Shown: positions 3,481-64,000 of the stretch, piece by piece
Position numbering within the stretch: the first letter of the stretch is position 1
Layout: the number at the start of each line of letters is the position of its first letter
DNA from: Terriglobia bacterium
GTDB taxonomy: Bacteria; Acidobacteriota; Terriglobia; UBA7540
DNA length: 64,000 nt
Assembly: GCA_035308965.1 (NCBI GenBank)
Contig: DATGFN010000015.1
Location: 121,762 to 185,761, forward strand
Reading direction: 5' to 3'
The notes under the pieces: generated by a model
Told to the model about the DNA's origin: nothing
What the model saw: only the letters and a program-made list of their open reading frames with translations
Databases searched by the model: none
Translations under genes and position numbers: made by a program

Positions 3481-6143
3481 GGGTGAACGGAAATCGAGTC
3501 TCCCTGCATCTCAACGGTCACCGCGCCGTGAATGTCCGTCCCAAAGACTTGCGCGCCGCCCGTTCTGAGCCGCGCGAGCTCATCCAAGGCCTCCGGCTTC
3601 AATCCATCCCCCATTTCATCACTCACCAGGGCAACCCGCGGCGAAACACGATCCAGAAACCGGGAGGCGGGAGATGTTCGAAGTTGATAAATTCCAAGTC
3701 CTATTGTGTGGCTGGCGAGCGGCGCACCCGAAAGCAACAAGGCCTGTTCCATTTTTTCACTGATGCCCCCGGATAAAAGGACACTGGCCTCTCCACTCGA
3801 AACGCGAAGGACCATCGAGTTGTCGTGGGACTTGGAACGAGTCGAAGATTCCGGAACGAGATTTTGGGGCGGCCAAAGGATGGAGATGGATGATACTCCC
3901 CGTTCGAAGCGGTCCCCGGCTGCAACCTGCCGTGTCCTGATCCCGTGCTGCCGAACCTCCTCCAGCAAATCCCGGTAGGAGGCGGTGAGGGGATTATTTC
4001 CGTGCCAAAACTCTCCCACATCGAAATTGCGGACCACCGAGTCCAACCCATCGAGGCGTTCCTCACGAGAGTCGGTCAGGGCTAGAACGTCAATTCGGTC
4101 GATACCTCGCGACCATAAGTACGGTGAAACAATTTCTTCTCCCGGATCCCAACGCCGCCCATGAAAGGGCGCAGCATAGGGGCCCACGGCACGGCTGCCT
4201 CCGGCATCCAGCAATAGCGTGGTTCGATCGGGAAGCACCACAAAAATCGCGTCGCCCCCACCACAGTCGAGCGTGGTTACTTCAAGGACTCCGCTTGGAA
4301 TTCGAGGCGCAAAGGGATGAAGGGTAATTAACATGGCAAGACTCAGTTCTCCCCCGAGTGATGTCCAGAACAAACGCGGCTTGCGCCCCACGGTCAATGC
4401 CGCAAAAATGATGGATATCACAAAGCCCCACGCCACCCAGGTGGGAGGCTCCGGGACCCGGAACGATAACCAGGCCGGCAGTGAGGGCAAGTCAGTTAAG
4501 GCAAAAATTCCGCTCAAGATAAAATGCACCAATTTGGCCGGCCAGGCAGCAAGAAATGGCGAAATAGTACCCAGCAGAACCGTGGGTATGGCAACCGCCA
4601 GGAGAACCACCATGGCGGGAATCGCCATCGCGTTCAATCCAATTCCAGAAATTGCGACGCGATGGAATGTGATCGCCATGGGGAGCAACAAACCTATCTG
4701 AAGAATGGCGGAAAATAACAACATGCTTGCCGCCCACACCGCCAATCGGATGGGACCAGTTACCGCCAACGAAGCAATGGCCGGGTGGCGTTTGGCAAAA
4801 CCAATTCGTTCTTGCAGGCCCGAGATCAAACTCCGTAAATCGAGTCGAAATTGTGCCTGGCTTGGCGTAAATATAATGTCCAGCCCATCTTGGTCAATCC
4901 GCCCAAGCGCGCGCCGGTAGGGCTCCGTGGTCAACATGAGGACGGGAACGGCCAGGCCGGCAATCAGCAACGCCGCGGCGAAAGACAACTCAAACCCGGT
5001 TTCGAAAAGCCATTCCGGGCGGTAGAGCATCAGCACCAGTGCCGCGAACCCGATAGAGTTCAGAGCGCTGTGTTCGCGGTAGACGAGGCGGGCGACGAGA
5101 TAAACAAAAATCATTAGCAGGGCTCGCAGCGTGGGCGCCCGCTGTTCCACCAGCAATGCATATAGGAGCAGGAATGCCATGAGCAGCAGGGTTCTCCAAG
5201 TTTGTCCAAGACGAGTCCGGCGGAGGAGGAACGATGCGATCAGAGCCAGCAAACCAATGTGTAGACCGGCAATGACGAGCAAATGATAAAGCCCCGTCTT
5301 GCGGAAGTTTTCGATCGTATCGGAATCGAGCGACGCGCGTTCGCCCAGCAGCACGGCTTTCAAAACCGCGCCATCCCGCATCCCCACCGACCACGGCGGA
5401 TAAAGCGCATCAATGGATCCGGTCAAGCGCGCGTGGGCCTCCTCCAAAAGCCTGGAGATCCCCGGACGCTTGGTGTCTTTTATTTTTTCCACGCCAGGAG
5501 AACACTTGATGCTCCCCAGCCAGTAGACGTCTTCCATGGATTGCATCCAGTGGCAATAATCAAAGCTGCCGGGATTCTGATAAACTCGGGGCTTCTGCAC
5601 TCGAATCAAGGCCCGGATTGTGTCACCGCTCTGAAGATGAAGGGCGTTGAGGGCAGGCCAAGCCCCCGACCCTCCCGTGGCCTCCAAGCGCACGCGAATG
5701 GTACCCGTCCAGGGGCGGCGTACATTATGGTTCGCGGCGCTTATTACCTCAATAAACCTCGCGCCCAAATCGAATTGCAATCCGTACCGGGTACGAAATG
5801 GTCTTGAGACCAGAACACCTTCCATTCGCACCGGGTTGGCCAGATTGATCCCCGATGATTGGAGATAGCGAACATGGTTCGGCGGAAAGCGCGCTTCAAA
5901 CATCAACGAAGCGATGGCGCCCGCGACTGCAAATCCGAATAACGCGAACAAAAACGCGGGGACATGCTTTTCTACGTGCAAACACGCGAGGCCGAGAATC
6001 AAACAAATCCCGGCGGTGGCAAGGAGGCGAGAGACGATATAAATTATTTCAGTGGAAGAATTACCCTGCGGGTGGACTGAAAGGATTCCCAGTGCGAAAC
6101 AACCTGCCAAGACCAGCAAGGGACTTCGCATGGAGTGGGTCAT
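3456..6143 (-). CDS. comEC: DNA internalization competence protein ComEC/Rec2 (competence domain + metallo-beta-lactamase domain)
   Basis: 895-aa polytopic membrane protein with a central competence domain (LLVIAGLHIGLLA...) and a C-terminal MBL-fold region (VLALTDSREERLDG...). Confidence 0.8.
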   Translation of the reverse strand: MTHSMRSPLLVLAGCFALGILSVHPQGNSSTEIIYIVSRLLATAGICLILGLACLHVEKHVPAFLFALFGFAVAGAIASLMFEARFPPNHVRYLQSSGINLANPVRMEGVLVSRPFRTRYGLQFDLGARFIEVISAANHNVRRPWTGTIRVRLEATGGSGAWPALNALHLQSGDTIRALIRVQKPRVYQNPGSFDYCHWMQSMEDVYWLGSIKCSPGVEKIKDTKRPGISRLLEEAHARLTGSIDALYPPWSVGMRDGAVLKAVLLGERASLDSDTIENFRKTGLYHLLVIAGLHIGLLALIASFLLRRTRLGQTWRTLLLMAFLLLYALLVEQRAPTLRALLMIFVYLVARLVYREHSALNSIGFAALVLMLYRPEWLFETGFELSFAAALLIAGLAVPVLMLTTEPYRRALGRIDQDGLDIIFTPSQAQFRLDLRSLISGLQERIGFAKRHPAIASLAVTGPIRLAVWAASMLLFSAILQIGLLLPMAITFHRVAISGIGLNAMAIPAMVVLLAVAIPTVLLGTISPFLAAWPAKLVHFILSGIFALTDLPSLPAWLSFRVPEPPTWVAWGFVISIIFAALTVGRKPRLFWTSLGGELSLAMLITLHPFAPRIPSGVLEVTTLDCGGGDAIFVVLPDRTTLLLDAGGSRAVGPYAAPFHGRRWDPGEEIVSPYLWSRGIDRIDVLALTDSREERLDGLDSVVRNFDVGEFWHGNNPLTASYRDLLEEVRQHGIRTRQVAAGDRFERGVSSISILWPPQNLVPESSTRSKSHDNSMVLRVSSGEASVLLSGGISEKMEQALLLSGAPLASHTIGLGIYQLRTSPASRFLDRVSPRVALVSDEMGDGLKPEALDELARLRTGGAQVFGTDIHGAVTVEMQGDSISVHPYRTSLAD

Positions 6144-6315: not shown

Positions 6316-7593
6316 CTAGGGCTTCTGCGCCGAAAGCCTGGCCACGCATTCAATGTGGTAAGTCTGCGGGAAAAAATCGAACATCTCGACCGAGTCCAAT
6401 GCGTAGCCGTGGGCTATGAGGAACCCAAGGTCACGGGCGAGAGTCGGCGGATGGCAACTGACATAGGTAATTCGCTGAGGACGTATTGCGCTGATGAGCT
6501 TCAGGGTGCTTGAGCCGACGCCAGCGCGCGGCGGATCAAGAACGACCAGGTCGGGTGCCGAGCGTGCGTACCGGCGCAAGAAATCAAAAACCGTATCCGC
6601 CACTGCGCGGACATTTTGAAGCAAATGCGCCTTCGCGTTCGCCGCCAGGTCGGCCGCCGCGGCTTGATTACCTTCCACAGCGACCACCTGCTCGAAATGC
6701 CGCGCCAACGGGAGTGACAACAGACCCACACCCGCGAAAAGATCGAGGGCGAGCCCGCCCCGCTCCGCCGCCGTGACGGATTTCACAAATTCCGGCAGCA
6801 GAAAGCGCGATGCCTGAAAAAACGATCCAGGGCTCACTCGATATTCAAAATCGCCCACACAATAATGCATGGCCGGTTCACCAAAGGTTCGCGGGCCGCT
6901 GCCGCCTTCGATGACCACGCTGGCCAAAGTCTTGCAGCGCTCCAGGCAATCTTTCGCCAAAGCTTCGCTCTCTTGTGCGCTGAAACTTCCGCGGAAGGTA
7001 ACTACTGCCCGCTGGTCACTATCGTCGGCGAGCAAGTCAATTTCGCGGCACGCCGTCAGCCGGCTGGACCACTCCGGCGGTCGAAGTTCGGCAACCATCG
7101 CATTGAGACAGGGCGAAAGAATGAGGCAGTTATCAATGGGGACAAGCTTGTGGGACTCGGCTTCAAAAAATCCCAACTCGACGCGCCCGCCGTCCGTGAA
7201 GGCTACTTTGAATTGGGCCTGGTTGCGGTAGTTCCACGGGCTTGCGGCATGGGAGGGAATTTCTGCGCTCCAAAAAATCTTCCCGATCCGCCGTAATGTT
7301 TCGCGCAGGATTTCGACCTTCGTCGCCGTCTGCATGTCGGAAGGAAAATGTTGGTACTGGCATCCTCCACAGCGTCCGAAGTATGGGCAAGGGGCGTCAA
7401 TACGCTCGGGCGCTGCGGCGAGAATCCGAAGAGGAAGGGCGTGCACCACCCCCTTGGCGGCACGAACTTCCTCAACCTCAAGTCTCTCGCCCGGCAGGGC
7501 ACGCGGTACAAAAATCACCCGGCCGAGGTGATGCCCGAGCGCGTCACCTCCGAAAACAAGTTTTTCCGCCGAGAATTCAAATGGCTGGCTCAT
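6316..7593 (-). CDS. rlmD: 23S rRNA (uracil-C5)-methyltransferase RlmD/RumA
   Basis: N-terminal TRAM domain, a Cys cluster (CPYFGRCGGCQYQH) and a class I SAM-methyltransferase core with the VLDPPRAG motif. Confidence 0.8.
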   Translation of the reverse strand: MSQPFEFSAEKLVFGGDALGHHLGRVIFVPRALPGERLEVEEVRAAKGVVHALPLRILAAAPERIDAPCPYFGRCGGCQYQHFPSDMQTATKVEILRETLRRIGKIFWSAEIPSHAASPWNYRNQAQFKVAFTDGGRVELGFFEAESHKLVPIDNCLILSPCLNAMVAELRPPEWSSRLTACREIDLLADDSDQRAVVTFRGSFSAQESEALAKDCLERCKTLASVVIEGGSGPRTFGEPAMHYCVGDFEYRVSPGSFFQASRFLLPEFVKSVTAAERGGLALDLFAGVGLLSLPLARHFEQVVAVEGNQAAAADLAANAKAHLLQNVRAVADTVFDFLRRYARSAPDLVVLDPPRAGVGSSTLKLISAIRPQRITYVSCHPPTLARDLGFLIAHGYALDSVEMFDFFPQTYHIECVARLSAQKP

Positions 7594-8331: not shown

Positions 8332-8363
8332 AGGGCTTTCAAGGGGTGAGAATAATGTGTTTC

Positions 8364-8468
8364 GGTATTTCAGTTTCTCAGTATTTCAGTGGGTCAGGTG
8401 ATCGGGCTACGGATAGTTCCGCCACTCGCGCGACTTAGAATTTCTTAACTGAGCAACTGAAATACTGA
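8364..8468. repeat. AT-rich intergenic palindrome (12-bp perfect inverted repeat CAGTATTTCAGT / ACTGAAATACTG with about 65-nt spacer)
   Basis: Read directly: tatttcagt occurs twice at 8366-8390 and its reverse complement at 8456-8467. It lies in the 160-bp gap below coaX. Confidence 0.6.
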
Positions 8469-8493
8469 CAACCTGAAGACCTTTCTTACCTTT

Positions 8494-10467: not shown

Positions 10468-10506
10468 AGGATTTCATCGATAAATCTGCGGGGGAAATTG
10501 CAAGAG

Positions 10507-10595
10507 GGAAACTGGAAATTAGAAAATTGAAACTGGTACCAACAATTGGGGGATTACATCCATTTTCCAATTTCCAGTTTCTAATTTCCAGCTTC
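10507..10595. repeat. AT-rich nested hairpin repeat (GGAAATTAG-type units) between birA and valS
   Basis: Left arm ctggaaattagaaaattgaaactgg; right arm ccaatttccagtttctaatttccag. The 14-bp core tttctaatttccag is a perfect inverted match, and the loop is 29 nt. Confidence 0.65.
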
Positions 10596-10601
10596 CCGTT
10601 T

Positions 10602-18513: not shown

Positions 18514-18821
18514 GGCGCAACCGCGGCGTTCGGCGCATCGTGATTTGCCGGGTCTGGGTGAAACTCTGTCCCATCGTCAACGCCCGCGTTAAAGCTATTC
18601 CGCCGGCGGAATAGCACACCAAAAATCAAAATGAACATCAGGAGCGAAGGGAACATCATCACCAGCACACCCGTCCTCAGTGCCTGCAACATTCCCGGAG
18701 CTTGCGTAGCGGCGTTCTGGTAACATGCGGGGCAGGTCTGAGCCAATGCCACGCTGGAACTCGCAAGCGCGGCAAGACCCGCCGAAATTCGCAGCAACTT
18801 TGCCCGAATTGGATGCTGTAA

Positions 18822-18859
18822 ATCTGAAATTTGAAATTTCAGATTTGAAATTTGAAATC
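18822..18859. repeat. AT-rich palindrome TCTGAAATTTGAAATTTCAGA followed by GAAATTTG repeats
   Basis: Read directly. The longer track ORF 18501..18893 translates through this palindrome (SGFQISNLKFQISDLQ), so that N-terminus is not real. Confidence 0.6.
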
Positions 18860-18973
18860 CACTTTTCACGATCTGCCGTCCCCTACTTTCCACGTCATGT
18901 CTTCCACCTTCTCCGCACCAAGTCGCCGCTTTTTCTCAGTTCATCATTCATAATTCATCATTCATACTTTCTT

Positions 18974-20673: not shown

Positions 20674-20763
20674 ACTTAGTCCGATGCAACTCAGGATTCA
20701 AAATTCCAAATTCCAGAATCACTTAACCATCTTTATCTTACTGCCTTCTGCCTTCTGCCTTCT

Positions 20764-22545
20764 TCATTCAGCCGCTACTTTCTCCGGCGAATCCTGCATG
20801 ATGTAATCTTTCTCAGCGCCCGGGACGCCAAATTCATAGGCGCCGTGGTAGACCACCGGATGTTTTCCGGCAAAATTATCGAAGGGCGGCGGAGAGGGAA
20901 TAGTCCACTCGAGCGTCGTTGCTTCCCACGGATTCTCAGACGCCTTCTCACCTTTGAACATGCTCCAAAAAAGGTTGGCCACGAAAATGATCTGGGCGCC
21001 CGCGGTGATGAACGCCGCATAAGTCATGAACATGTGCAGGTCAATAATATGGGGTGTATTCAGGAAATTGACTTCCGTAAACTGGGAGTACCGCCGAATG
21101 TTCCCCGCCACGCCCAGGAAGTGCATGGGCATGAAGATGCAGTAGACGCCGACAAAAGTAATCCAGAAATGTAACTTACCCAGGGATTCGTTCAACATGC
21201 GGCCAAACATTTTGGGAAACCAGAAGAATGTTCCGGCAAACATTCCGAAAATGGCGGCCACGCCCATCACCAGGTGGAAGTGCCCAACCACAAAATAAGT
21301 GGCGTGAAGATTGATGTCCACAGGCGGCTGGGCGAGAAACAGCCCGCTGAGTCCGCCGCTGACGAATAGAGAAACGAATCCGATGGAGAACAGCATAGCG
21401 GTGGTCATGCGCAGCCTGCCGCCCCACAGCGTCCCCAGCCAGTTGAATGTCTTGATGGCACTCGGCACGCCGATCGCCATGGTCATCACGGAAAATGCAA
21501 AGCCGGAATAGGGGCTCATGCCGCTCAAGAACATGTGGTGGCCCCAAACCATGAAGCCCAGGAATCCGATGGCGGACATGGCGTAAATCATGGCCTTGTA
21601 GCCAAAGATCGGCTTGCGTGAAAACGTGGAGATAATGTGTGAGGTCACGCCCATGCCCGGCAGGATAGCAATGTAAACTTCCGGGTGACCGAAGAACCAG
21701 AACAAGTGCTGCCAAAGGAGCGGCGACCCGCCGCTATGTGGAATGATTCTATCGCTCACCACAAGGCCGGCAGGGATGAAGAAACTGGTGCCGCCTACGC
21801 GGTCGAGAAGCAGCAAAACGCCAGCGGCCAGCAGAACGGCAAATGAGAGCAGCGCCAGAATCGCGGTGATCAACCACGCCCAAATGGTAAGCGGCAGGCG
21901 CGTGAGCGTCAGTCCTTTTGCGCGCAAATCGAGTGTAGTGGCAATGAAATTCAGCGCGCCCAGCAACGAACCGACGCAAAAAATTGCGATGGAAACTATC
22001 CATAAAGTTTGGCCCAGACCTTCGCCCGGCCCCGCTGCCGATCCGATGGCGCTCAAGGGCGCATACCCTGTCCAGCCGGAAAGAGGCGGGCCGTCCTGGA
22101 TGAAGAAAGTTGAAAGAAGAACCACGAAGCCCACAAAAGTGGTCCAGAAGGAAAGCATGTTCAGCGTGGGGAAAGCCATGTCTTCAGCGCCCAACTGGAT
22201 GGGCAGGATGTAATTGCCAAACCCGCTTTGGGGCGCGGTGGTGAGCACGAAGAAAACCATCAATGTGCCGTGAAGGGTCATCAGGGAGAGGTAATATTCA
22301 GGCGTCATCACGCCGCCGGGAGCGCCGCTGGGAGAAAGCTTGTCAAGCAGCGGGATATGTGCGGCGGGCCACACCATGTGCAAGCGCATGAAAACTGAAA
22401 GCACGATGCCCACAAGAACCGACGCCAGGGCCAGGAAGTAATACTGTTTCCCGATCACCTTGTGGTCAAGGCTGAAGATGTATTTCCTTATGAAGCCGGT
22501 GGGCGCCGTGTGATGGTGAACGGCCTCCGCGTGCGCATCTGCCAT
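20764..22545 (-). CDS. ctaD: cytochrome c oxidase subunit I
   Basis: WFFGHPEVYI motif, 12 or more TM helices and 593 aa. Confidence 0.95.
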   Translation of the reverse strand: MADAHAEAVHHHTAPTGFIRKYIFSLDHKVIGKQYYFLALASVLVGIVLSVFMRLHMVWPAAHIPLLDKLSPSGAPGGVMTPEYYLSLMTLHGTLMVFFVLTTAPQSGFGNYILPIQLGAEDMAFPTLNMLSFWTTFVGFVVLLSTFFIQDGPPLSGWTGYAPLSAIGSAAGPGEGLGQTLWIVSIAIFCVGSLLGALNFIATTLDLRAKGLTLTRLPLTIWAWLITAILALLSFAVLLAAGVLLLLDRVGGTSFFIPAGLVVSDRIIPHSGGSPLLWQHLFWFFGHPEVYIAILPGMGVTSHIISTFSRKPIFGYKAMIYAMSAIGFLGFMVWGHHMFLSGMSPYSGFAFSVMTMAIGVPSAIKTFNWLGTLWGGRLRMTTAMLFSIGFVSLFVSGGLSGLFLAQPPVDINLHATYFVVGHFHLVMGVAAIFGMFAGTFFWFPKMFGRMLNESLGKLHFWITFVGVYCIFMPMHFLGVAGNIRRYSQFTEVNFLNTPHIIDLHMFMTYAAFITAGAQIIFVANLFWSMFKGEKASENPWEATTLEWTIPSPPPFDNFAGKHPVVYHGAYEFGVPGAEKDYIMQDSPEKVAAE

Positions 22546-22698
22546 CTGTATGTCTCCCTTGCGATAATTGCCGATTTCTGATTGACGATTGAAGATTTAA
22601 CGCCCGTTCGCCTTTTCAAACAGACTCATTTAAAGAATTGGCAGCGCAGCCACTTTGGATCCTAAAATCGTCAATCGACAATCGTAAATGGTCGATTC

Positions 22699-27779: not shown

Positions 27780-27894
27780 TGCGCTGCTCCTCGTAGCGCC
27801 GGGCTTCAGCCCGGCATCTTAATCATTTGTGATTTGTCTTGAACCCTGCCGCCCTGAAGGGCGGCGCTACAACATCACTGCAATGCGTTAATTC

Positions 27895-34032: not shown

Positions 34033-34118
34033 AAAAACTCCTGGGCGCTCACCAGCGGCCAGGAGTTATCAGTCCGTCGGCTGACGGACGGTTATGGCGA
34101 ACTCCATCGCCTTGAAGC
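34027..34118 (-). promoter_or_regulatory. fluoride riboswitch (crcB RNA motif) with intrinsic-terminator expression platform
   Basis: Minus-strand RNA reads AGGCGAUGGAGUUCGCCAUAACCGUCC-GUCAGCCGAC-GGACUGAUAACUCCUGG. Conserved blocks are GGCGAUGG..UUCGCC, AAC(C)G.CC and CUGAUaaCUCCU, and they lie directly upstream of crcB. Confidence 0.8.
34031..34065 (-). terminator. intrinsic terminator (CUCCUGGCCGCUGGUGAGCGCCCAGGAG + U7) serving as the riboswitch OFF-state element
   Basis: 8-bp GC-rich stem followed by UUUUUUU on the minus strand. Its 5' half overlaps the riboswitch pseudoknot-forming CUCCU. Confidence 0.6.
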
Positions 34119-34229
34119 CCGCATTATACACAACACGACGCAGCCTTTAAAAATCATTCCTGGGGCGCGGCGCAAACTCTGGGCCGATTGAATTCCCACC
34201 ATGCGCTGCATTAAGATGGGGAGCATCTC

Positions 34230-40468: not shown

Positions 40469-40645
40469 GGGAGATCTTGCGCTGTTCGCGATGGTTTAAG
40501 TTCTAGGGGTGCTCCATCCCAAAGTCAAAGTCCATGTTTAAACCAGATTTCCGTCATAATGGAATCTTGAACCCCAAATAGTATGCTCAAATTGTGCTTG
40601 CCGAATACACTTCTTAATTTTGGTTAGAGTCCGAATTTGCATGAT

Positions 40646-40730
40646 TGGGAGCGCGGGCCGGGACCCCACGCAATGCTGTGGGGCTCGCCCGCAATCGCTT
40701 GATCATAAAAGAGCGGGCGAGACGCCCGCG
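40646..40730. repeat. GC-rich nested inverted-repeat structure (11-bp outer stem enclosing 6-bp and 9-bp hairpins)
   Basis: gggagcgcggg at 40646-56 pairs with cccgcgctccc at 40716-26. Inner hairpins are ccccac/gtgggg and ctcgcccgc/gcgggcgag. Read directly; it lies 27 bp outside the island's left terminal repeat. Confidence 0.5.
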
Positions 40731-40756
40731 CTCCCGGCCATCCAAATCCGGAAACT

Positions 40757-40791
40757 ACCGAAAATTCGGTAATGGGGTCTTATAGCTTGAA
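40757..40791. repeat. left terminal inverted repeat of the island
   Basis: ccgaaaattcggtaatGGGGTCTTATAGCTTGAA. Confidence 0.6.
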
Positions 40792-62441: not shown

Positions 62442-63026
62442 ATGGCAGGGCTGTCCGGAAGCGATGTATCCCAGCTTTTGCTGGCTTGGAACGGAGGAGA
62501 CGACCGCGCGCTGGAAAAGCTCATGCCCATCGTGTACGACGAGCTGCGCCGGATGGCCCACCAGTACATGGCTCTCCAGCAGCCGGGCCACACCCTGCAG
62601 AGCACCGCGCTGGTGAATGAGGTTTATCTGCGTCTGGTGGATTCTGCCAATGCCAGTTGGCAAAATCGAATTCATTTCTTTGCAGTGTGCGCCCGGGCGA
62701 TGCGGCAGATTCTGGTGGATTGGGCGCGGTCCCGCCAGGCGCAGAAGCGAGGCGGCGAAGTCCGGCCGCTTCAGCTGGACGAACCCTTGGCCGTCACCGA
62801 GGCGCAGGATGTGGACCTGATCGCTTTGGACCAGGCCTTAAATTCCCTGGCCGCCATGGATCCCCGCCGCAGCCGGGTGGTGGAACTGCACTTCTTCGGG
62901 GGCCTCGACCTGGAGGAAACGGCCGAGGTGATGAAGGTTTCCAGCGATACGGTGCTGCGCGACTGGAAGCTGGCCAAGAGTTGGCTGCGCTGTGAGATGA
63001 GCGGAGAAAAGTTGGATGGATCCTGA
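62442..63026 (+). CDS. ECF-type RNA polymerase sigma-70 factor (TIGR02999-like)
   Basis: Sigma-2 and sigma-4 regions ([28 protein letters not shown]...; C-terminal [28 protein letters not shown]). Confidence 0.85.
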
Positions 63027-64000
63027 GCGTTGGCAGAAAATCGCCGAGATCTACCAGGCCGCGCTTGACGAGGAACCAGGCCGCAGAGCTGCTTTCCTGG
63101 AGCAAGCCTGCGGCGGGGATGACGCCCTGCGGCGGGCCGTGGAAAAGCTGCTGGCACAGAACGAGAAAGACGATGACTTCCTGGAAGTGGCGGCGCTGGA
63201 CGTGGCGGCCAAGGGGGTGGCTCAGGATCAGGCCCGCCATCCTGAGGCGCCGGTGCAACCTGACGTCCTGGTGGGCAGTACGATCTCGCATTACCGTGTC
63301 CTCCAAAAGCTGGGTGGCGGGGGCATGGGGGTCGTTTACAAGGCGAAGGACACGCGCCTGGGCCGCGAAGTGGCTCTGAAGTTTCTGCCCAGCGTCACAA
63401 GTATTGGTTCGTCAGGAAACGCGCAAGATCCCGCCCACAGCCCACTGAGTGCGGCGGCCCTGCATGATTCACAAGCGCGCGAGCGCTTCCAGCGCGAAGC
63501 GCGCGCCGCCTCGGCACTCAACCATCCCAACATCTGTACGGTTCACGACATTGACGAGTTTGAGGGCTACCCCCTCATCGCCATGGAGCTTCTGGAAGGC
63601 CGCACCCTGAAAGAACTACTGGTAGGGGCGGGCCTCGCCCCCGCCCATGGTCGTCCACAAGGGGCGCCCCTGGCGATTGAAAACCTCCTCGATCTCTCGA
63701 TCCAAATTGCCGACGCTCTGGACGCGGCCCACAGCAAGGGCATCATTCACCGGGACATCAAACCGGCCAACATTTTCGTCACCAGCCGCGGCGTGCCCAA
63801 GGTTTTGGATTTTGGCCTGGCGAAAATACAGGAATTAGGAATTAGGAGTTCGGAATTAGTGGCCGACCCGTCATTGTCCAGGAGCGAAGAGAAAACGTCC
63901 GATCCCCCCCTAATTCCTAATTCCGAATTCCTAATCCCTGGTTCACATCTCACCACCCCAGGCAGCGCCGTGGGCACTGTGGCCTACATGTCGCCGGAGC
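63016..64000 (+). CDS. Ser/Thr protein kinase; 3' end outside window; ORF overlaps the sigma-factor gene by 11 nt
   Basis: ATG at 63016 (ATGGATCCTGA overlap). Kinase motifs are present: [13 protein letters not shown]...[20 protein letters not shown], ...GTVAYMSPE. The track ORF is absent because no stop falls inside the window. Confidence 0.8.
63831..63937. repeat. AT-rich palindromic repeat (GGAATTAG units, about 27-bp arms) inserted in-frame inside the kinase activation-loop coding region
   Basis: Left arm ggaattaggaattaggagttcggaattag and right arm ctaattcctaattccgaattcctaatcc. 107 nt of about 35% GC inside a gene of about 65% GC. The reading frame stays open through it. Confidence 0.6.

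Follow-up and report, generated by a model that had tools for sequence, protein, structure and literature searches.

A palindromic repeat of 112 nt lies in frame within a Hanks-type Ser/Thr kinase gene, among the codons of the activation loop, close to the right end of the DNA analysed here, which is a 64,000-nt stretch of the Terriglobia contig DATGFN010000015.1 (hereafter the window). The arms of this repeat are built from GGAATTA-type heptamers, and the kinase reading frame passes through them without a stop. We think that the repeat is probably a passenger which is tolerated by the kinase, rather than an adaptation of it.

Structure of the palindromic element

The element (Table 1) starts with CAGGAATTAGG and ends with CCTAATCCCTG, and contains kinase codons 272-309, including the first two bases of codon 309. 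Each arm has four GGAATTA-type heptamers, two of them perfect, and the two arrays converge on opposite strands; autocorrelation gave a period-7 identity of 0.81 for the arm units. The best pairing register joins 63832-63859 with 63917-63944 over 28 positions, made of 24 Watson-Crick pairs, three G-T pairs and one mismatch, and depending on the register the arm is 28-31 nt long and the spacer 49-57 nt. The RNA fold of the element region reached -44.1 kcal/mol (z-score -3.5), which was equalled by none of 200 shuffled sequences, and the DNA fold gave a z-score of -4.6. When the 16-mer GGAATTAGGAATTAGG was searched with up to three mismatches, seven matches were found in the window against 0.36 expected, and six of the seven were in the element.

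The first-pass annotation of this DNA had placed a hairpin-forming element of 107 nt and about 35% GC at 63831-63937. The hairpin is supported by both folds, but the inverted repeat extends over 63829-63940, and the GC content of the interval 63831-63937 is 48.6%; AT-richness is limited to the arms (38% and 40%), while the centre has 61%.

The arms (63831-63859 and 63909-63938) form terminal inverted repeats as expected of a miniature inverted-repeat transposable element (MITE). The element also agrees with the in-frame palindromes of the Rickettsia palindromic element (RPE) kind, which have about 100-150 bp in an intact open reading frame (ORF), as it is a 112-nt repeat in an ORF of 1072 aa, and with inverted heptamer pairs, in which two convergent arrays of at least two tandem 7-nt units lie on opposite strands. 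Tagged repetitive extragenic palindromic (REP) sequences are imperfect palindromes of 20-40 bp, and since neither GTAG nor CGTC was found at the ends, the element does not belong to them. The unit GGAATTA has no run of three G and so differs from the G-quadruplex unit GGGNATC. Scans of the window and of the element with Rfam 15 at the gathering score returned no family at the element.

Survival of the reading frame

The kinase ORF opens at 63016, has no stop across the element and continues past the window edge. The complete protein of 1072 aa is encoded at L001:10575-13793 on a 245-kb contig, Ga0070731_10000042 of Joint Genome Institute (JGI) metagenome 3300005538, so the earlier statement that the element keeps the frame proved correct. 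Because 7 and 3 have no common factor, three or more perfect GGAATTA units put TAG in all three frames, and TAA in the three frames of the opposite strand. When the arms were reset to the consensus, stops appeared in the kinase frame. In the actual sequence two units are altered, with AAT TAG replaced by AGT TCG (63847-63852) and TCC TAA by TCC GAA (63922-63927), and the pairing table showed that C63851 pairs with G63925 in the stem. A single exchange of an A-T for a C-G stem pair thus removed both in-frame stops and kept the hairpin, and the same exchange leaves the mirror-image frame of the opposite strand open. The two other forward frames contain stops within the element. The rule for read-through is that every third heptamer unit must lose its stop, and here one stem base pair does so for both arms.

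These features could be read as signs of a selected function, in which the element would serve as a regulatory peptide of the activation loop, as an mRNA stem setting expression through RNase III or ribosome pausing, or as a 7-nt on/off switch. With 28 positions and -44 kcal/mol, the stem is both long and stable, and three of the four positions that are not Watson-Crick pairs are G-T, which pair in RNA. Both stop-removing changes are complementary, so the pairing is kept, and a slip of 7 nt would truncate the kinase because both alternative forward frames run into stops in the element. However, two perfect units per arm are far fewer than in known phase-variable tracts, and the three sequences available do not differ in length. 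No relative shares the insert, the inserted peptide is of low complexity and predicted to be disordered, and the promoter and terminator scan gave no promoter-like or terminator-like signal at the element. Moreover, GGAATTC, GGAATGA and other variant units are present in intergenic copies elsewhere; the stop-removing change may therefore pre-date this locus and need not have been selected here. A selected function is for these reasons unlikely.

Presence of the element in separate records

An assembly artefact had been left as an alternative by the first-pass annotation. The JGI contig and the Logan assembly of SRR5579862 agree in every base of the element, and a strain variant with two substitutions elsewhere in the protein has an identical insert peptide, which together make an artefact of one assembler very unlikely. 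A chimeric join or a fold-back read might still be imagined, as library artefacts can generate palindromes and the JGI and Logan assemblies may stem from one sample. Against this, the outputs of the two assemblers are identical, and the same insert peptide is carried by the separately recorded strain variant and by the NCBI record HLY59842.1, which comes from a Terriglobia metagenome-assembled genome (MAG) and was identified by cluster look-up as the same protein as the window kinase. The frame is kept through the ORF of 1072 aa, and elements of this type occur in frame on unrelated contigs as well. An assembly or sequencing artefact is thus extremely improbable.

The kinase and its variable loops

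The kinase domain is followed by a predicted long helix (residues 474-504), presumed to be a membrane span, and by a C-terminal beta-propeller-like domain; Pfam models for Pkinase and Tricorn_N/PD40 matched the called gene. All catalytic motif classes (GxGxxG, VAxK, HRDxKxxN, DFG and (S/A)PE, the last as MSPE) were found, and their columns were invariant in an alignment of 64 sequences. The solved kinases PknA, PknB and StkP matched with E values of 1e-21 to 1e-24, and these PDB alignments stop exactly at DFGLAKI.

Translation gave 49 residues between DFGLAK and GTVAYMSPE, the number counted before. The annotation had compared this number with a usual loop of 15-20 residues, which holds for generic Hanks kinases, consistent with the end of the PDB alignments, but not for this family. 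We collected 120 homologues, and in 118 of them the distance from DFG to APE was 37-75 residues with a median of 49; ten homologues reached or exceeded the 64 residues of the window kinase. With such a family median, 15-20 residues is the wrong baseline for this protein.

Two other loops of the family vary in the same way: 32 of 118 homologues have a longer beta3-alphaC loop and 47 of 111 a longer alphaD-alphaE loop. One 17-residue peptide motif and its variants recur at the beta3-alphaC, alphaD-alphaE and activation-loop sites. In a related Terriglobia kinase (L127, protein P0103), a GTAG-tagged palindrome of 54 nt encodes this motif twice in frame, in the alphaD-alphaE loop (L127:2385-2438; fold z-score -3.7) and in the activation loop (2595-2648; -4.9), and an additional GTAG palindrome lies in its beta3-alphaC loop. 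Comparison with L127 revealed a decayed insert of this type in the alphaD-alphaE loop of the window kinase (Table 1), whose folding is no longer significant (z-score -0.15). The beta3-alphaC loop of the window kinase (63388-63480) has 43 residues from ALK to RFxREA against a family mode of 23, about 20 more, and is predicted to be disordered.

At the site of the GTAG palindrome of the window kinase, the kinases of two Acidobacteriota MAGs (L123:5182-5260 and L124:5182-5260) carry an in-frame array of CGAAACT heptamers in the alphaD-alphaE loop, with the peptide RNSKLETGNSKSK... Intact hairpins were considered for these two arrays and rejected, as the z-score was +0.6 in L123 and only a weak -1.5 in L124; we regard them as decayed arrays.

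The GGAATTA element was absent from all 120 homologues and from four orthologue-like GTDB genes, whose C-terminal domains are 66-67% (L123 and L124) and 48% (L125 and L126) identical to that of the window kinase. This agrees with the lineage-specific insertion that the annotation had proposed to check against orthologous kinases. Because the loops of relatives carry other repeats and the GGAATTA element is absent from them, the N-terminal half of the activation loop, the beta3-alphaC loop and the alphaD-alphaE loop are recurrent landing pads for palindromic repeats, and the element itself is lineage-specific.

An AlphaFold2 model was built from the 64-sequence alignment. The predicted local distance difference test (pLDDT) score was above 90 in the kinase core and below 50, without secondary structure, in residues 129-150, 206-209 and 269-316, which are the three insert sites. 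The element is encoded within the third of them, and its peptide is accordingly modelled as disordered.

Related hairpins in metagenomes

A class query of the form GGAATTAGGAATT-N40-70-AATTCCTAATTCC matched at least 120 metagenome stretches, and the matches listed contained 123 hairpins, to which all class counts below refer. Soil, sediment, sludge and gut were among the sources, and the GC content of the contigs was between 34% and 69%. The same pattern had no match in 2.9 million viral contigs. By a crude gene call, co-directional genes flank 54 of the 123 hairpins, convergent genes 28 and divergent genes 15; five are inside ORFs, and 21 are at a contig edge or could not be assigned. The preference for co-directional and convergent spacers near 3' ends (54 and 28 against 15) is the placement known from REP sequences. 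The hairpins start near the upstream stop codon, with a median gap of about 10-20 nt, and some of them provide that stop; 102 of 123 (83%) have stops in all six frames.

The centres of the hairpins mostly differ. In some subfamilies, however, one conserved centre is found at separate loci or in two copies on a single contig, and a part of the class at least was therefore dispersed as whole units. Two subfamilies with conserved structured centres were seen, one in L021, L046, L102 and L106 and another in L009, L082, L090 (two copies) and L121; one such centre consists of two small GC hairpins and the other carries GGCTTGGCCGCCCCTACAGAGTGCGCGGCAGC, and both were dispersed as whole units. Rfam gave no family for these conserved-centre subfamilies or at 13 related hairpin loci. 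The genes between paired hairpins on L090 and L059 were a glycosyltransferase-like gene and nuoC. An NADH dehydrogenase operon on L059 has GGAATTA hairpins (5968-6060 and 6600-6687) in the spacers nuoB-nuoC and nuoC-nuoD, a placement that suggests a role of the class in intercistronic RNA.

Four of the 123 hairpins are in frame in long ORFs, all with peptides of the ELGIRN...LIPNS type. One is a GGAATTA/GGAATCA hairpin (L105:3534-3609) in a hypervariable loop of valyl-tRNA synthetase (ValRS) from Anaerolineales. Among 119 homologues in which it could be delimited, this loop has 33 to 56 residues, and several versions look decayed or shortened. In the relative Ca. Villigracilis proximus (P0229) it is shorter by exactly 7 residues, or three heptamers, which shows that coding copies gain and lose units in steps that preserve the frame. 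A membrane protein (L045:5684-8002) contains two different in-frame heptamer hairpins, with the peptides MTNDELRMTNEE...SSFVIRNSSFVI and ELGIRNSE...FLIPNSQFLI.

A protein database was searched with a profile of five peptides encoded by hairpins, which scored 23 candidates and returned eight tiny spurious ORFs; with so few candidates scored and such ORFs returned, it is uninformative on how often the hairpins are translated.

Origin and consequence of the element

The reading that we prefer is as follows. Elements of this class normally occupy intergenic spacers just 3' of genes, usually with stops in six frames. One such copy is in frame in the hypervariable N-terminal half of the activation loop of a kinase linked to an extracytoplasmic function (ECF) sigma factor. 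It is probably tolerated for two reasons: the host stretch and the two other loops are variable in length, predicted to be disordered and have taken up palindromic repeats repeatedly, and the stem pair that would generate stops has C-G in place of A-T. In all likelihood the element simply adds 24-37 disordered residues before the conserved HLTTPG...GTVAYMSPE part of the loop. The element is probably neutral for the kinase, although its 28-bp mRNA stem might be a target of RNase III or slow the ribosome.

The annotation had called the element REP- or MITE-like, landed in frame and tolerated. Many intergenic hairpins have these arms, relatives lack the element, the loop is predicted to be disordered and other in-frame palindromes exist in the kinase family, all of which are in favour of this description; transposition of the MITE type was not supported.

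Several observations weigh against a tolerated insertion. The flanks AAAATA and GTTCAC have no common direct repeat, so no target-site duplication is seen, and no transposase was linked to the element, the genes inspected being those between the paired hairpins on L090 and L059; the arrival of the element as a unit is therefore no more than possible. By BLAST against the window and all fetched loci the 49-nt centre matched only itself, and no second GGAATTA hairpin or copy of the centre was found in the window and the 10 kb beyond it (about 74 kb of host genome). In the kinase domain the closest relatives have 57-71% identity, and the search for orthologues yielded none above about 70%; the nearest relatives are thus too diverged to offer a true empty site which would fix the insertion boundaries. 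Deletion of the whole element would leave a DFG..APE loop of 27 residues, shorter than the minimum of 37 in the 118 homologues, while deletion of the arms alone would leave about 40 residues, typical for the family; the centre may thus be native sequence.

The lack of a centre copy, duplication or transposase, together with the loop-length argument, makes local growth a serious rival. In that case heptamer slippage would have extended the arms on either side of native loop sequence, and hairpin-templated copying (template switching) would have kept them complementary. The centre is unique and has a host-like GC content (61%), and the loop has a length typical of the family once the arms alone are taken away. 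The in-frame ValRS hairpin of Anaerolineales differs by 7 residues, or three heptamers, between relatives, within a loop of 33-56 residues of which many versions are decayed, and, as cited in PMC4679880, no other long simple repeats of bacteria reportedly slip as readily as heptamers. On the other side, the identical GGAATTA unit is found in genomes of 34%-69% GC, and its independent rise in a coding sequence of 63% GC is hard to see; other subfamilies clearly disperse whole with conserved centres, and no intermediate with a single arm or fewer units was found among the relatives of the kinase. We regard local growth as rather unlikely on balance, and prefer the tolerated in-frame passenger.

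A broader view may also be taken. Heptamer-armed hairpins may be a distinct and undescribed class of repeats that crosses phyla, consisting of AT-rich inverted 7-nt arrays with six-frame stops just after genes. They might spread or grow independently of transposases, for example by slippage and hairpin-templated copying. Entry into protein loops would require a change in every third unit, and the hairpins would in this way repeatedly supply new disordered stretches to kinases, tRNA synthetases and membrane proteins. This broader view is tentative, and we give it a limited though real chance of being correct.

Gene neighbourhood and other repeats of the window

The last 11 nt of the ECF sigma factor gene are also the first of the kinase gene, and the two are probable operon partners. 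The coordinates of the features discussed are collected in Table 1.

Table 1. Features of the kinase locus in the window.
Feature	Position	Strand	Evidence
ECF-type sigma factor gene, directly upstream of the kinase	62442..63026	+	ORF list, Pfam Sigma70_ECF
Hanks-type Ser/Thr kinase gene, 5' part	63016..64000	+	Translation, Pfam, PDB matches, structure model
Decayed GTAG-tagged GC-rich palindrome, alphaD-alphaE loop of the kinase	63622..63672	+	Comparison with L127
DFGLAK codons, start of the activation segment; element begins 3 nt downstream	63808..63825	+	Sequence, PDB alignments
Whole palindromic element, 112 nt, 49% GC	63829..63940	+	Inverted-repeat search, RNA and DNA folds, composition
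Left arm, GGAATTA GGAATTA GGAGTTC GGAATTA G, 38% GC, peptide ELGIRSSEL	63831..63859	+	Sequence, inverted repeat
Codon TCG; would be an in-frame TAG in a consensus heptamer	63850..63852	+	Sequence, pairing table
Centre, 49 nt, 61% GC, 17-residue peptide	63860..63908	+	Composition; GC like host coding sequence
Right arm, CC TAATTCC TAATTCC GAATTCC TAATCCC, 40% GC, 10-residue peptide	63909..63938	+	Sequence, inverted repeat
Codon GAA; would be an in-frame TAA in a consensus heptamer	63925..63927	+	Sequence, pairing table

Five other AT-rich hairpins or palindromes were seen in the window, with arms of periodic 7- or 8-nt units that differ in each case. The one at 10492-10597 has period-7 arms of a GGAAAYT-type unit. 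For the repeat at 10507-10595 the annotation had claimed the same unit as in the kinase element; the architecture of AT-rich period-7 arms is shared, but the unit is not, as no GGAATTA match was found there within three mismatches. The others lie at 8362-8477 (unit NNNNTCAG), 18820-18860 (AAATTTG), 20680-20720 (a palindrome of AAATTCC) and 22562-22694 (GNCAATC), and all but the one at 18820-18860 were noted in spacers between co-directional minus-strand genes. Beside the small AAATTCC palindrome, three to four tandem CTGCCTT heptamers are found in the intergenic DNA at 20739-20770. A large inverted repeat with a GC-rich centre and 43-nt arms, 79% complementary, lies at 40616-40766, and a GC-rich GTAG-like palindrome (TCGTAGCGCCGGGCTTCAGCCCGGCA) at 27791-27872; both are probably REP-type elements of the host genome. 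On the minus strand, 34053-34120 is a fluoride riboswitch (crcB motif, Rfam RF01734) with 44.7 bits against a gathering score of 34.

Comparison with known repeat systems

An exact-sequence search of the literature found no paper with the GGAATTA arm sequence, and comparison was made with four kinds of described repeats.

According to the summary in PMC3733652, RPEs are palindromic repeats of about 100-150 bp, in frame in genes of apparently functional Rickettsia proteins (Ogata et al. 2000); they add a peptide at the surface and leave the fold unbroken. The window element is likewise an in-frame palindrome. In contrast to RPEs, which that summary presents as sequence-conserved multi-copy families of Rickettsia, it shares only the low-complexity arms with other loci and has a centre that is unique among the loci searched; the likeness is one of architecture. 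The host also differs, being a free-living soil acidobacterium.

The REP super-families GTAG and CGTC are intergenic, mainly between co-directional and convergent genes, and the occasional in-frame copy contributes 20-30 residues or more to its protein (Di Nocera et al. 2013, PMC3733652). The placement of the heptamer hairpins is REP-like, and a true GTAG-type remnant is present in the same kinase, with intact copies in L127. The window element differs by having no GTAG or CGTC tag, by AT-rich arms of tandem 7-nt units, and by much longer arms and spacer.

Heptameric repeats have been described as inverted pairs of GGGAATC in Xanthomonas, with 70-75 pairs per genome (Rehm et al. 2015, PMC4692102), and as intergenic TAACTGA repeats, which stop all three frames, in Beggiatoaceae and cyanobacteria (MacGregor 2015, PMC4679880). 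Like these, the GGAATTA hairpins are convergent 7-nt arrays able to form a stem-loop, mostly intergenic near gene ends, and their forward repeats stop three frames; GGAATTA also has the core GGAAT in common with the Xanthomonas unit. The known repeats differ in being described in single genera, as G-quadruplex candidates or as elements of the 5' untranslated region, whereas GGAATTA has no G-tract. The literature found on heptameric repeats describes neither in-frame coding copies nor occurrence across phyla.

Tandem repeats of Borg elements produce disordered protein regions (PMC9879509), and the window element resembles them in that repeat DNA has become a new disordered protein segment with the frame kept. 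Borg repeats are direct repeats with unit lengths in multiples of three, whereas the window element is a palindrome of 7-nt units which keeps the frame only through specific unit variants.

It is already known in outline, from RPEs and intragenic REPs, that palindromic repeats become parts of proteins, and the window element is a heptamer-armed variant of this. It extends the phenomenon of in-frame "selfish palindromes" to a free-living soil phylum and to a repeat with tandem-heptamer arms, and draws attention to heptamer-armed hairpins as a class that is widespread and poorly described, as well as to acidobacterial kinase loops colonised by repeats. That three loops of acidobacterial Ser/Thr kinases serve as landing pads bears on the annotation of very large kinase families and on the interpretation of unusually long activation loops in acidobacterial kinases, and inserts in such loops should be read as regulatory adaptations only with caution.

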